Part shown: in pieces, positions 12,887 to 25,155 of the stretch
Position numbering within the stretch: position 1 is the stretch's first letter
Layout of the letters: every line of letters starts with the position of its first letter
Source: an uncultured Alphaproteobacteria bacterium
Lineage (GTDB): Bacteria > Pseudomonadota > Alphaproteobacteria > SP197
Assembly (NCBI GenBank): GCA_958295695.1
Contig: OY282363.1
Location: 1,738,225 to 1,802,224 of the forward strand
DNA length: 64,000 bases
Reading direction: 5' to 3'
Translations under genes and position numbers: made by a program
Notes under the pieces: model-generated
What the model was told of the DNA's origin: nothing
Database searches by the model: none
What the model saw: the letters and a program-made list of their open reading frames with translations, nothing else

Positions 12887-14506
12887 TCAGGACCTCGCGC
12901 CGGCCAGGGCCTCGGGCGTGTCGATATCGACGAGAACGGAATCGTCCGCCATCTCGACTTCGGCGACGAGGTCCTCGTTCTCGCCGATGAGGTGGCGGGC
13001 GCCGGTGTCGCCCGTGACGGCGGCCATGGCCTCGAAGAACCGTCGGTCCCAGAGAACGGGATTGCCGCGCTTCCCGTCGTGGGTCGGGACCACGATGGCG
13101 CGGCCCTCGACGGGATCGTAGGCGGCGACGAGCCGGGCGATGGCGTCCGCCGCGACCCCGGGCATGTCGCCCAGCGCCACGATGACCGCGTCGATATCGG
13201 CCGGCAGGGCGGCCAGCCCCGTTCGCAAGGACGTGCCGAGGCCGGCGGCGAAGTCCTCGTTGCGGACGACCGTCAGGTCGCGGCCCTCCAGGGCCGCCTC
13301 GACGGCTTCGGCCTCGTGACCGGTCACCGCGGTCACCGTCGCGATCCCGGCCTCGATCAGGGCGTCGACGGTGTGGCGCACCATGGGTCTGCCGCCGATC
13401 TCGACGAGGAGCTTGTTGCGCGATCCCATGCGGCGGCTCTGTCCGGCCGCCAGGACGATCGCGGCGATGCGGGGAGGGCGGCGAGCCCGGTCCCCGGCGT
13501 CCTCGGGCGCGGCGCGCGGCCTCGGCCGCAGCGGGATTTCCTTGAGCAGGCCGCCGACCCCCATGGCCGCGATGTCGCGGCCGGTGACGCGCAGGCCCGC
13601 GGCGATACGCCGCAGGACCCAATCGAAACCGTTGAGCTTGGGCGAGCGGGCGCAGCCGGGAAGGCCGACGATCGTGGTCGTCCCCAGATGTCCCAGCAGC
13701 AGCAGGTTGCCGGGATCGACCGGCATCCCGAGGCGATCGACCGAACCGCCGGCCCGTTCGATGGCCGCCGGGATCACGTCGCGCCTGTCCGCGATGGCCG
13801 ATGCGCCGCAGATCAGGACCAGATCGTGGCGGGCGGTCTCCTCGGCGATCCGGTCGGCGAGGATGTCGGTCCTGTGGTCGATGCGGACCTGGCCGTCCAG
13901 CGCCAGCCCGAGGGCCGCCAGACGGTCGGCCACGACCCCGGCGGTCTTGTCCAGGACACGGTCCTTGACGGCGGCCGTCCGGGTCATGATGAGCGCCGCG
14001 CGGCGGAGCTTGAAGGGCGCGACGCCGATGACGCGGCCGGAGACGCGCGCCGCGACGAGGCAGCGGTCGAGGACGTCGCCCTGGACCGCGAAGGGGATGA
14101 TCTTGACGGTGGCGACCATCCGGCCGGCCGACACCGCCTCGAACGGGGGCAGCGTCGCCACGGTCACGGCTTCGTCCGTCCCGTTGACGGCGTCGATCGC
14201 GGCGGCGTCGATCGCCGCGATACCGGATTCGGTCGCAAGGAGGTTGGCGCGGCCCGTGAAGGGCCGCTGGACCCGGATGGACGGCCCCGCCAGCGCGTCG
14301 GCCAGCATCCGCGCGGCCTCGTCCTCGTGGATATCGCCCTCTTCCAGGCGCGCGACGGTGACCGACTCCACCCCGGCCCGCCGGAGGCCCTCGACATGCG
14401 CGGCGTCCAGACGCAGGCCCTTCTTCAGAGTTTCTCCGCCGTAGCGCGCGCCGTGGACCAGGATCGCCCCAGCGGCCTCGCCCACGGGAATGCCGCCGAA
14501 CTTCAC
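12887..14506 (-). CDS. Molybdopterin-binding (MoeA/CinA-like) domain fused to MobA/MocA-like nucleotidyltransferase (molybdenum cofactor cytidylyl/guanylyl-transferase family)
   Basis: GTG start at 14506, overlapping the xdhC stop. A MoCF-biosynthesis domain (GMPVDPGNLLLLGHLGTTTIVGLPGCARSP) is followed by an NTP-transferase domain (AAIVLAAGQSRRMGSRNKLL...ALGDMP). Confidence 0.6.
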   Translation of the reverse strand: MKFGGIPVGEAAGAILVHGARYGGETLKKGLRLDAAHVEGLRRAGVESVTVARLEEGDIHEDEAARMLADALAGPSIRVQRPFTGRANLLATESGIAAIDAAAIDAVNGTDEAVTVATLPPFEAVSAGRMVATVKIIPFAVQGDVLDRCLVAARVSGRVIGVAPFKLRRAALIMTRTAAVKDRVLDKTAGVVADRLAALGLALDGQVRIDHRTDILADRIAEETARHDLVLICGASAIADRRDVIPAAIERAGGSVDRLGMPVDPGNLLLLGHLGTTTIVGLPGCARSPKLNGFDWVLRRIAAGLRVTGRDIAAMGVGGLLKEIPLRPRPRAAPEDAGDRARRPPRIAAIVLAAGQSRRMGSRNKLLVEIGGRPMVRHTVDALIEAGIATVTAVTGHEAEAVEAALEGRDLTVVRNEDFAAGLGTSLRTGLAALPADIDAVIVALGDMPGVAADAIARLVAAYDPVEGRAIVVPTHDGKRGNPVLWDRRFFEAMAAVTGDTGARHLIGENEDLVAEVEMADDSVLVDIDTPEALAGARS

Positions 14507-15186
14507 GCGAGCTTTCCCCGCTGCGCGGCGACGACTTCGGCCATGATGGAAAGGGCGATCTCGGCCGCCGTCTTCGCGCCGATGTCGAGGCCGACCGGAC
14601 CCTTGACGCGCGCGACCGCGCCGTCCGGGAATCCGGCCTCCTTCAACCGTTCGATACGCCGAGCATGGGTCCGCTTGCTGCCCAGCGCTCCGATGTGGAA
14701 GACGGGCGCCGAGAGCGCGAAGCGAAGCGCGGGATCGTCGATCTTGGGGTCGTGGGTCAGCGTCACCACGGCGGTCCGGCGATCGGGCCGGAGCTCGGCG
14801 AGCGCGTCGTCGGGCCAGGCGTCGAGCAGGACCGCGCCGGGAAAGCGCTCCGTATCCGCGTAGGCGCGGCGGGGGTCGATCACGGTCACCGCGTATCCGA
14901 CGGCGCGGGCGAGGGCGGCGAGCGGTTCGGCGATATGAACCGCGCCGACGACGATCAGGCGCGGGGGCGGGTTGAAGACGTGGAGGAAGAGAGGCCGGCC
15001 TCCGATCTCGACGCTTGCCGAACGGTCGGACGCGAAGGCTTCGGCCACGGCTTCGGCGATCGCCGCGCCGGGCGCTTCTCCGGGCGCGATCAGCGTTTCG
15101 TCGCCGGTATCGAGCCAAGTGGCCAGCACGACCGGACGTTTGTCGCGCCGCGCGTCGTTGAGCGCCATGAGGGTCCGGGGGTTCAT
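14503..15186 (-). CDS. XdhC/CoxI-family accessory protein, Rossmann-like C-terminal domain
   Basis: Start at MNPRTLMALND. Motifs LIVVGAVHIAEPLAALARAVGYAVTVIDPR and HDPKID are typical of XdhC. Confidence 0.7.
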   Translation of the reverse strand: MNPRTLMALNDARRDKRPVVLATWLDTGDETLIAPGEAPGAAIAEAVAEAFASDRSASVEIGGRPLFLHVFNPPPRLIVVGAVHIAEPLAALARAVGYAVTVIDPRRAYADTERFPGAVLLDAWPDDALAELRPDRRTAVVTLTHDPKIDDPALRFALSAPVFHIGALGSKRTHARRIERLKEAGFPDGAVARVKGPVGLDIGAKTAAEIALSIMAEVVAAQRGKLA

Positions 15187-15512
15187 CCGACGCGGGACAC
15201 GAAAACCCTGACGGTTCCGCCGCAGGTCAACCCGACCTCCCAGGCCCGCTCGTTGCTGACCGAAAACTCGAGGGTCCGCGCCCTGCCGTCGCCGATGGCG
15301 GCCCGCGCTTCGCCGATGACCGCGCCCTCGATGCATCCGCCGGAGACGGAGCCCCGGAACGCGCCGTCCTCGCGCACGACGAGCTGGCTGCCCACCGGAC
15401 GCGGGCTGGACCCCCAAGTGTGCGTCACCGTCGCCAGGGCGACACGGCGGCCCTCGCCGATCCAGGCCTCCGCGGTTTCGAGCGCGTCGTCGTTCAGGCC
15501 GCTTTCAGCCAC
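15183..15512 (-). CDS. XdhC/CoxI-family N-terminal domain protein (split from the C-terminal domain gene)
   Basis: C-terminal 110 aa of ORF 15183..16541 from a GTG start: ALATVTHTWGSSPRPVGSQLVV...GSVSGGCIE. Its stop overlaps the start of the XdhC C-terminal-domain gene by 4 bp. Confidence 0.5.
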   Translation of the reverse strand: MAESGLNDDALETAEAWIGEGRRVALATVTHTWGSSPRPVGSQLVVREDGAFRGSVSGGCIEGAVIGEARAAIGDGRARTLEFSVSNERAWEVGLTCGGTVRVFVSRVG

Positions 15513-23991: not shown

Positions 23992-24471
23992 TCAGGCCCC
24001 GGCGCCGGCCATCTTGCCGGCCGCCGCGCGGATCGACTTGACGATGTTGTGGTAGCCCGTGCAGCGGCACAGGTTGCCTTCGAGGTGTTCGCGGATCTCG
24101 CGTTCGGTCGGGTCGGCGTTGTGCTTGAGCAGGTCGAGCGCGCTCATGATCATGCCCGGCGTGCAATAGCCGCACTGGAGGCCGTGGTTCTCGTGGAAGG
24201 CCTGCTGGATCGGGTGCAGTTCGTCGCCGTCGGCCACGCCCTCGATCGTCTGGATGTCGCGGCCATCGGCCTGGAGCGCCAGCACGGTGCAGGATTTGAC
24301 CGAATCGCCGTCGATGAGCACCACGCAGGCGCCGCACTGGCTGGTGTCGCAGCCGACATGGGTTCCGGTCAGGCGCAGGGTCTCGCGCAGGAAGGTCACG
24401 AGAAGCGTGCGTTCCTCGCAGACGCCGGACCGTTCTTCGCCGTTCACCGTCATGGTCGCGGTGATGGTCAT
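23992..24471 (-). CDS. coxS: Xanthine-dehydrogenase-family [2Fe-2S] small subunit (CoxS-like)
   Basis: 159 aa. Both cluster motifs are present ([11 protein letters not shown] and CGYCTPG...CRCTGY). Confidence 0.9.
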
Positions 24472-24540
24472 GGCAAGCTCCCCGATGGCCCCGAGGCCCG
24501 CAGTCTCGAAGCGCGCCGGCCCGCGGTCAAGCCCGCGCGG

Positions 24541-25155
24541 TCACTGCGCGACCGCGCCGGCGACCAGCAGGACGAGGAGCGCCAGGCCGATGAAGCCGAA
24601 CCACAGGTTCTCGAAACTGGCCTCGGCCGGCGCGCCGTAGACGGGCCGCGGAGGCGGACGCCCGTTCGCCGCCGGGGCCTCGGCCGTCGCGGCGGGCTCC
24701 TCCCCGGTCCGCGACGGTTGCGCCACCAGGTCGTCGAGGGCGCCGAAGAAGCGGTCCGCGATCTTGCGCGCGCTGCCTTCGACCAGACGGGCGCCGACCT
24801 GAGCCAGCTTGCCGCCGACCTGGCCTTCGGCTTCGTAGCGCAGGACGGTCGCCGCGCCGTCGGCCTCCAGCGTGACGCGCGCGCCGCCCTTGGCGAAACC
24901 CGCGACGCCGCCCTGGCCTTCGCCCGAGATGGTGTAGGCGTTGGGCGGATCGAGGTCCGACAGGGCGACCCGGCCCCTGAAGGTCGCCGAGACGGGACCG
25001 ATGCGCGCTGTCACCCTGGCGGCGAAGGCGGTGGCGGACTCCTTCTCGATCTCCCGGCAGCCGGGAATCGCCCGCTTGAGCACCTCGGGATCGTTGAGGG
25101 CGCGCCACACCGCCTCGCGAGGAGCCTCGATTCTGTGTTCGCCGGTCAGATTCAT
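24541..25155 (-). CDS. coxG: CoxG-like SRPBCC (carbon monoxide dehydrogenase subunit G) protein with C-terminal TM anchor
   Basis: Start at [20 protein letters not shown]. CoxG family, ending in a hydrophobic helix ([18 protein letters not shown]). Confidence 0.8.

Follow-up and report, generated by a model that had tools for sequence, protein, structure and literature searches.

A conserved and recurrent form II cox-type gene cluster without the gene for its catalytic large subunit

The cluster and the search for a large subunit gene

The DNA analysed here (referred to below as the window) is a stretch of 64,000 nucleotides (nt) from contig OY282363.1 of an uncultured Alphaproteobacteria bacterium (assembly GCA_958295695.1, positions 1,738,225 to 1,802,224 of the forward strand), and it carries on its minus strand a molybdenum (Mo) hydroxylase gene cluster of the cox type in which coxG, coxS and coxM are followed by a ydbH-ynbE-ydbL operon, coxD, coxE, an xdhC gene split in two and a molybdenum cofactor fusion gene, with an operon for an Mrp-type antiporter upstream (Table 1). 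The gene for the catalytic large subunit, coxL, is not among them. What the window holds is a variant, without the catalytic gene, of an established type of cluster, the form II (putative, 'BMS-type') coxSLM cluster, which is aerobic-CO-dehydrogenase-like and of the xanthine dehydrogenase family, and this variant is both conserved and recurrent. Genes in the window, which is ~70% guanine plus cytosine (GC), were called from third-position GC and then checked against Pfam and NCBIfam. Every member of the cluster named in a preliminary description of this DNA was found in its place with strong Pfam support, and the claim made there, that this is a cox-type Mo-hydroxylase cluster lacking a large subunit, was borne out by the domain matches and by a six-frame search of the window.

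That search used as query the CoxL of a related locus (L003:849-3215; loci of relatives are denoted here by L numbers), which was verified by its Ald_Xan_dh_C, MoCoBD_1 and MoCoBD_2 domains. A tblastn comparison with the whole 64 kb window gave a best E value no better than 0.015, and a hidden Markov model (HMM) built from 14 CoxL sequences (25-100% identity) found nothing below E=3.9 among all six-frame stop-to-stop open reading frames (ORFs), so coxL is truly absent from the 64 kb and no pseudogene fragment of it is left. An ORF of 780 amino acids (aa) at 47053-49395, tried as a CoxL candidate, is polyphosphate kinase, and the other large ORFs encode transporters, aminotransferases, glutamine synthetase and similar unrelated enzymes.

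When CoxS was aligned to solved small chains all 8 cluster cysteines were found to be kept, with the CxxxxCxxC...C and CxxC...CxC motifs intact, and the closest solved structures were 4zoh_C and the small chains of carbon monoxide dehydrogenase (CODH) in 1ffu, 8uem and 1n5w. The CoxD of the window is 74-85% identical to the CoxD of relatives, the division of XdhC into two genes is also kept in relatives, and the top NCBIfam match of the cofactor fusion was TIGR03310 (MocA/YgfJ) at 157 bits, under the 186-bit cut-off. Scans for promoters and terminators from 12800 to 32700 gave none above the shuffled background.

The preliminary description had ydbH, ynbE and ydbL in a row; all three families are indeed present, on one strand and in canonical order, but ydbH is parted from ynbE by a 1.7 kb insertion sequence (IS) element derived from the IS1595 family. 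The element ends in 34-nt terminal inverted repeats, is flanked by the 8-bp direct repeat AACGCGAT (a target duplication, at 18222-18229 and 19931-19938) and has a GC content of 0.62 compared to ~0.70 for the window. It contains a truncated Zn-ribbon transposase (Pfam Zn_ribbon_IS1595) which is not intact, its ORF breaking after ~175 aa with no DDE domain detected, together with a P63C fragment and a secreted ORF of 238 aa that matches no family (18359-19075, + strand). The split is found in this genome only. The element is absent from the closest relative, L167, where the gap between ydbH and ynbE is 42 bp, and the two genes are contiguous in L084 and L171 also. Polar effects of the element may reach ynbE and ydbL, and perhaps coxD and coxE as well.

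Table 1. Features of the cox-type cluster and of the Mrp operon upstream of it (positions within the window)
Feature	Position	Strand	Support or remark
CoxG, SRPBCC quinone-carrier domain with C-terminal membrane anchor	24541..25155	-	Pfam COXG E 5.9e-37; hydrophobic C-terminal tail read from translation
CoxS, small subunit, two [2Fe-2S] clusters	23992..24471	-	Pfam Fer2_2 E 3.9e-35 and Fer2
coxS-coxM junction, 3-nt scar at site of ~2.37 kb coxL in relatives	23989..23991	-	
CoxM, medium subunit binding flavin adenine dinucleotide (FAD)	23191..23988	-	Pfam FAD_binding_5 E 1.6e-45 and CO_deh_flav_C E 1e-5
YdbH-like AsmA-family protein	19943..23086	-	Pfam YdbH-like E 5.2e-57
IS1595-family derivative element, 1.7 kb	18230..19930		inserted 5 bp after ydbH stop codon
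YnbE lipoprotein	17987..18190	-	Pfam Lipoprotein_19 E 3.8e-13
YdbL	17650..18000	-	Pfam DUF1318 E 5.3e-22
CoxD, MoxR-type AAA+ maturation ATPase	16696..17616	-	Pfam AAA_5, AAA, AAA_3
CoxE, VWA maturation protein	15494..16699	-	Pfam VWA_CoxE E 3.1e-64
XdhC N-terminal-domain protein (split XdhC)	15183..15509	-	Pfam XdhC_CoxI E 7e-27
XdhC Rossmann-domain protein (split XdhC)	14503..15165	-	Pfam XdhC_C E 3.6e-42
Fusion of MoCF_biosynth and MocA-like molybdenum cofactor cytidylyltransferase (MobA-like NTP_transf_3)	12887..14482	-	NTP_transf_3 E 3.5e-43, MoCF_biosynth E 3.1e-8
MrpE (MNHE), first gene of Mrp-type cation/H+ antiporter operon	31996..32478	-	Pfam MNHE E 9.4e-26
MrpF	31733..32020	-	Pfam MrpF_PhaF E 2.4e-17
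MrpG	31392..31736	-	Pfam PhaG_MnhG_YufB E 2.6e-23
MbhD/MbhE-like fusion (C-terminal part of MrpA)	30850..31395	-	Pfam MbhD E 7.5e-16, MbhE E 1.9e-13
MnhB-domain subunit	30431..30862	-	Pfam MnhB E 1.1e-27
MrpC (NuoK-like)	30069..30434	-	Pfam Oxidored_q2 E 7.7e-22
First MrpD-like antiporter subunit	28589..30064	-	Pfam Proton_antipo_M E 7.9e-62
Second MrpD/MrpA-like antiporter subunit	27114..28592	-	Pfam Proton_antipo_M E 1.8e-51 and Proton_antipo_N
Conserved small membrane protein, 77 aa	26869..27102	-	no Pfam or NCBIfam match
Third MrpD-like subunit, 565 aa, last Mrp gene	25179..26876	-	NCBIfam NF009310 'Na(+)/H(+) antiporter subunit D' 669.9 bits (cut-off 564)

Around the cluster, three paralogs of the PALP family (threonine dehydratase or cysteine synthase-like) lie within 28 kb (11567-12796, 33974-34912 and 38520-39590), and throughout the clade the first of them, which contains an ACT domain, is in synteny with the cox maturation genes. 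A DUF192 gene (32707-33231) is found upstream of mrpE, as it is in L169, and an NDUFS4-like gene on the + strand (33338-33919; Pfam NDUS4 at 33516-33830) lies between tRNA-Pro(TGG) and tRNA-Arg(TCT).

Ancestral gene order and the loss of coxL

Loci around relatives of CoxM (79 in all) were taken from species-representative genomes and the window proteins and CoxL were mapped onto them, the readable sequence being ~20 kb per relative and 64 kb for this genome. The majority of relatives whose CoxM is 55-70% identical show the form II order, with coxS, a coxL of 2.4 kb and then coxM, and in the sister loci the CoxL encoded between coxS and coxM is of 788-792 aa. AYRGAGR is the motif of form II CoxL, and it is carried by the sister-clade CoxL of L003. 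In L003, L015 and L016 coxS, the 2.4 kb coxL and coxM are followed by ynbE/ydbL, coxD and coxE, while L081-L084, the coxL-bearing contigs closest to the window, show a fuller arrangement, MrpE-F-G-MbhDE-B-C-D-D-small-D, then a CYTH gene on the opposite strand, then CoxG-CoxS-CoxL-CoxM-YdbH-YnbE-YdbL-CoxD-CoxE-XdhC; L080 has the same layout with PAP2/nitrile-hydratase genes inserted between coxG and coxS. The ancestral layout is thus an Mrp operon, coxG-coxS-coxL-coxM, ydbH-ynbE-ydbL and coxD-coxE-xdhC(N)-xdhC(C)-mocA, and the layouts of L080 and L081-L084 show that the Mrp and ydbH operons already adjoined a complete coxSLM.

This order bears on the suggestion in the preliminary description that the ydbH operon occupies the position of coxL. 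In the coxL-containing L081 and L084, as in the window, ydbH comes directly after coxM, so that the coxL site is between coxS and coxM and that of ydbH between coxM and coxD; both are present, at separate sites, and the suggestion does not hold. A comparison of synteny with relatives had been proposed there, with ydbH being an ancestral neighbour named as part of what would contradict the proposal, and an ancestral neighbour is what ydbH was found to be. The wider idea, of a rearranged ancestral locus, is right in that the cluster derives from one with a large subunit, but what took place was a clean deletion leaving 3 nt, with no replacement, and the ancestral order was S-L-M and not coxMSL. 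As a separate observation, L170 (6969-16885) has YdbH-CoxD-CoxE-XdhC-MocA-IlvA-GATase with neither Mrp nor CoxG/S/M upstream and with ynbE and ydbL missing, an arrangement which indicates that the two halves of the window's cluster can exist apart.

The distance from the coxS stop to the coxM start is 3 nt in the window and 2-5 nt across the window, L001, L002, L004, L005, L006 and L008, and the same coxL-less layout was found in L167, L168 and L169 and, by a metagenome scan with the third MrpD-like protein, in L085 and L091. Circular chromosomes carry the loci L168 (2.8 Mb) and L169 (3.9 Mb), a 3.75 Mb chromosome carries L002, and the window's own contig is 3,415,685 bp. With the layout present in at least 12 independent assemblies, three circular chromosomes among them, an assembly artefact is ruled out. 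Neighbour-joining trees of concatenated CoxS and CoxM nested the window among coxSLM loci and placed the coxL-less loci in one clade, sister to the coxL-containing L003/L080/L081 group, which implies one loss, and synonymous divergence (dS) within the clade is about 1, near saturation, so this loss is old. We consider it very probable that coxL was cleanly excised in the ancestor of the window's clade.

It was not lost only once. L171, a circular chromosome of 5.5 Mb, also lacks coxL and yet nests with the coxL-containing L080 and L165, with which it has the PAP2/nitrile-hydratase insertion in common, indicating a second, independent loss; comparison of L171 (4479-5889) with L080 (7049-10708) showed that exactly the coxL reading frame is gone, with the 13-nt spacer between coxL and coxM left behind. 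More distant branches also have adjacent coxS and coxM with no coxL within 10 kb (L007/L011/L014 and L026/L029/L036/L057). In L007, L011 and L014, which are short contigs without a coxL, the coxS-coxM gap is 6 nt, and in L011 and L014 an ORF of 116 aa comes next after coxM, that of L014 matching DUF6614. L026, L029, L036 and L057 are metagenome-assembled genomes of Bradyrhizobiaceae and Xanthobacteraceae whose sets, at about 8950-14400, consist of CoxG-CoxS-CoxM, a second, tandem FAD_binding_5 paralog and XdhC(N)-XdhC(C)-MocA, with no large subunit within 10 kb on either side.

Constraint on the retained genes and a possible partner for CoxS and CoxM

Within the coxL-less clade the ratio of nonsynonymous to synonymous divergence (dN/dS) was low for all of the cox genes compared (CoxS 0.02-0.11, CoxM 0.05-0.21, CoxG 0.10-0.29, CoxD 0.06-0.11 and CoxE 0.08-0.14). 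Columns conserved in at least 95% of 35-41 coxSLM-type sequences numbered 54 in CoxS and 77 in CoxM, and at these the coxL-less clade deviated in 0-1 and 3-5 respectively, compared to 0-1 and 2-4 in the coxL-containing sister group, the window CoxS having no deviation at any of the 54. Distances to outgroups, expressed as a ratio of coxL-less clade to sister group, were 1.03 for CoxS and 1.11 for CoxM, with 0.88-1.10 for Mrp proteins. The window and L167 as a pair gave dN/dS of 0.24-0.53 for every gene, Mrp controls included, and this was not taken as relaxed selection; the pair was set aside because the L167 contig has 2x coverage and contains frameshifts and because a third-position GC of ~0.9 compresses dS. 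Judged from these sequence comparisons, the retained cox genes are functional and under purifying selection, with a constraint similar to that on the genes of complete enzymes.

The best explanation of the locus as a whole, and one that we hold to be fairly probable, is a form II cox-type cluster without coxL whose CoxS and CoxM serve a large subunit encoded elsewhere; on the narrower point of whether the genome does encode such a subunit elsewhere we lean, a little, towards its presence. CoxS and CoxM would then be the electron-transfer half of a molybdenum-cytosine-dinucleotide hydroxylase, and their partner would probably be a paralog encoded elsewhere rather than a relocated copy of the lost ortholog. 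Electrons would pass from the molybdenum subunit through the two [2Fe-2S] clusters to the FAD and on to quinone carried by CoxG, which, anchored in the membrane, would deliver that quinone to the FAD site of CoxM. XdhC and MocA would supply the cofactor to and mature the large subunit, as would CoxD and CoxE where they are kept, and the Mrp and ydbH-ynbE-ydbL operons would be independent neighbours inherited by descent. There is precedent that makes a distant partner plausible, in that CoxS-CoxM of the same family adjoin, in L013, L021, L034 and L059, large subunits that share only 41-43% identity with the orthologous CoxL.

Several observations weigh against a partner encoded elsewhere. No large subunit was found for any coxL-less genome in the ~20 kb examined per relative or the 64 kb examined here. 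Among the best 120 CoxL matches in the database, which share 70% identity or more with the CoxL of the sister clade, are some on contigs of coxSLM-type relatives that recur among the CoxM matches (27,986; 13,038; 396,471 and 24,238 bp), and none of the 120 lies on the coxL-less chromosome-scale contigs compared (3,415,685 bp for this genome, and 2,821,534, 3,853,775, 3,752,649 and 5,528,408 bp; plasmids and other contigs are outside this scope). The matches listed include close CoxD homologs from the window, L001, L002, L004 and L171, but no CoxD at least 70% identical from the chromosome-scale contigs L168, L008, L169 and L006. These form two sub-lineages, L168/L008, where coxD and coxE are missing and L168 keeps xdhC and mocA, and L169/L006, where unrelated genes come right after coxM and the maturation genes are not linked. 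CoxG-CoxS-CoxM of all four are still under purifying selection, and their persistence without a close CoxD indicates that they function independently of the CODH-type maturation ATPase. The repeated loss of the catalytic gene with CoxS and CoxM kept also fits a role without any large subunit.

Such a role would make CoxG, CoxS and CoxM an autonomous, membrane-tethered module of iron-sulphur flavoprotein and quinone carrier, trading electrons with the quinone pool and perhaps co-transcribed with the upstream Mrp antiporter and coupled to it as an ion transporter driven or regulated by redox state, and this we regard as unlikely. What speaks for it, beyond at least two independent losses of coxL with coxS and coxM kept and the lack of a close coxL ortholog on the coxL-less chromosomes among the best 120 matches listed, is that the Mrp-CoxG-CoxS-CoxM block is the only part kept in every member of the coxL-less clade, persisting in L169 and L006 where all that follows it is rearranged, and that the last Mrp gene is close to coxG (23 bp in the window, 13 bp in L169 and a 4-bp overlap in L168). 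In L080 (1562-3894) and L171 (1-1308) coxG even stays directly downstream of the last Mrp gene although coxS(-coxL)-coxM is displaced by ~3 kb, and CoxG may be tied to the Mrp operon no less than to the cox genes. Against an activity without a large subunit, CoxS and CoxM show neither a rate shift nor a loss of coxSLM-conserved residues after coxL was lost, and xdhC and mocA, for molybdenum cofactor insertion, are still linked in most members of the clade.

Coupling to Mrp in particular, including the re-use of CoxS and CoxM by the Mrp module that had been proposed for this locus, found no support when 80 loci around homologs of the third MrpD-like protein were compared. In approximately 70 of these 80 homologous Mrp clusters no cox gene lies close by, and in most of them the gene next after the third MrpD-like gene is convergent, indicating that the Mrp operon ends at this subunit. 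Where cox genes do follow Mrp they are usually a complete coxGSLM (L131, L133 and L081), with an opposite-strand gene separating the two in L081-L084 and L133, and in L088 the cox genes are upstream of Mrp on the opposite strand. From 25179 to 32478 there is no coupling module of the NuoB/NuoD/NuoH type, only Mrp subunits and one 77-aa protein, and we know of no Mrp complex that takes electrons without a module of this kind. The gene for the 77-aa protein separates the second MrpD-like gene from the third in almost every one of the 80 clusters, and the protein is probably an undescribed subunit of this type of Mrp.

Relocation of the orthologous coxL to another site on the same chromosome is a still less promising account, and we think it improbable. 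The conservation in the window, L001, L002, L004, L167 and L171 of coxD and coxE, whose products act on the active site of the large subunit in CODH, would be expected of it. However, P0005, P0006 and P0007, the closest CoxL outside the lineage of the sister clade (74-78% identical to sister-clade CoxL), are all encoded in coxS-coxL-coxM operons, and the coxL-less chromosomes are missing from the best 120 CoxL matches listed although their CoxM and CoxD are listed. Since those listings mean that their genomes are in the database, the orthologous coxL has seemingly been lost and not moved, and any partner would be a more distant paralog.

That the cluster is a decaying remnant, its cox genes non-functional since the loss of coxL and drifting towards pseudogenes, is very unlikely. 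The loss of coxD and coxE in some sub-lineages, the IS element interrupting the ydbH operon in this genome and rates 3-11% faster than in the sister clade for all cox-cluster proteins are in keeping with decay, but at least 12 genomes have every reading frame intact despite the saturated dS, dN/dS is 0.02-0.2, and the cofactor-binding cysteines and conserved columns are unchanged. Least tenable of all, and suggested by the gene order of the window alone (coxG-coxS-coxM and then ydbH, with Mrp upstream), is a rearrangement of the ydbH operon into the coxL position of a coxMSL-DEFG locus with CoxS and CoxM taken over by Mrp, since coxL and ydbH have different positions in coxL-containing relatives, the order is the form II S-L-M and not M-S-L with AYRGAGR in the sister-clade CoxL, coxM of L001 is followed directly by coxD with neither ydbH nor coxL, and the presence of the Mrp cluster predates the loss of coxL and does not depend on it.

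Significance and comparison with known systems

The locus matters because a whole clade, and independent recurrences beside it, have had the catalytic gene cleanly removed while the genes for iron-sulphur, flavin, quinone-carrier and maturation proteins stay under selection. If the subunits do pair with a distant large subunit, metabolic predictions made by counting coxL as present or absent would be complicated; if instead CoxG, CoxS and CoxM act alone, this would be a new function for electron-transfer subunits of the xanthine dehydrogenase family. In the literature we found no account of Mrp antiporters tied to CoxG or Mo-CODH, nor of orphan coxS/coxM sets.

Soil and marine bacteria very commonly carry cox clusters of form II, and to our knowledge the substrate of the form II coxSLM enzymes has not been established. 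The window resembles them in its CoxS with two [2Fe-2S] clusters and CoxM with FAD, matching the small and medium chains of CODH, in the linkage of coxG, coxD, coxE, xdhC and mocA, in the nesting of its CoxS and CoxM in the family tree, and in sister loci having S-L-M order and an AYRGAGR CoxL; it differs in having no coxL across 64 kb, so that coxS abuts coxM. With the form I Mo-Cu CODH of Afipia/Oligotropha carboxidovorans and Mycobacterium smegmatis, encoded by coxMSL together with coxDEFG, the relatives of the window have the three-subunit architecture in common, but the form I order is M-S-L, unlike the S-(L)-M found here, the sister motif is AYRGAGR and the window has no large subunit, while the form I CoxL motif is AYXCSFR (PMC11771112). 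CoxG has been described as an SRPBCC protein, anchored by its C-terminus, that shuttles quinone, drawing it from the membrane and docking near the FAD of CoxM (PMC12202499); the window CoxG shares this domain and likewise has a hydrophobic tail at its C-terminus. CoxD and CoxE are maturation factors of CODH (PMC4240915).

The upstream cluster is like the Mrp/Mnh/Pha antiporters in having MrpE, F, G, MbhD/E, MnhB, MrpC and three Proton_antipo_M subunits; it lacks its own redox module, and only in a few lineages does it lie next to cox genes. It differs from redox complexes of the complex I/MBH/MBS type in lacking the NuoB/NuoD/NuoH-type coupling module. The ydbH-ynbE-ydbL genes resemble the AsmA-like YdbH-YnbE-YdbL operon for envelope lipid transport in having the three families in canonical order, and differ from it in being embedded, in the window's lineage, between coxM and coxD, and in this genome in having an IS1595-type element after ydbH.

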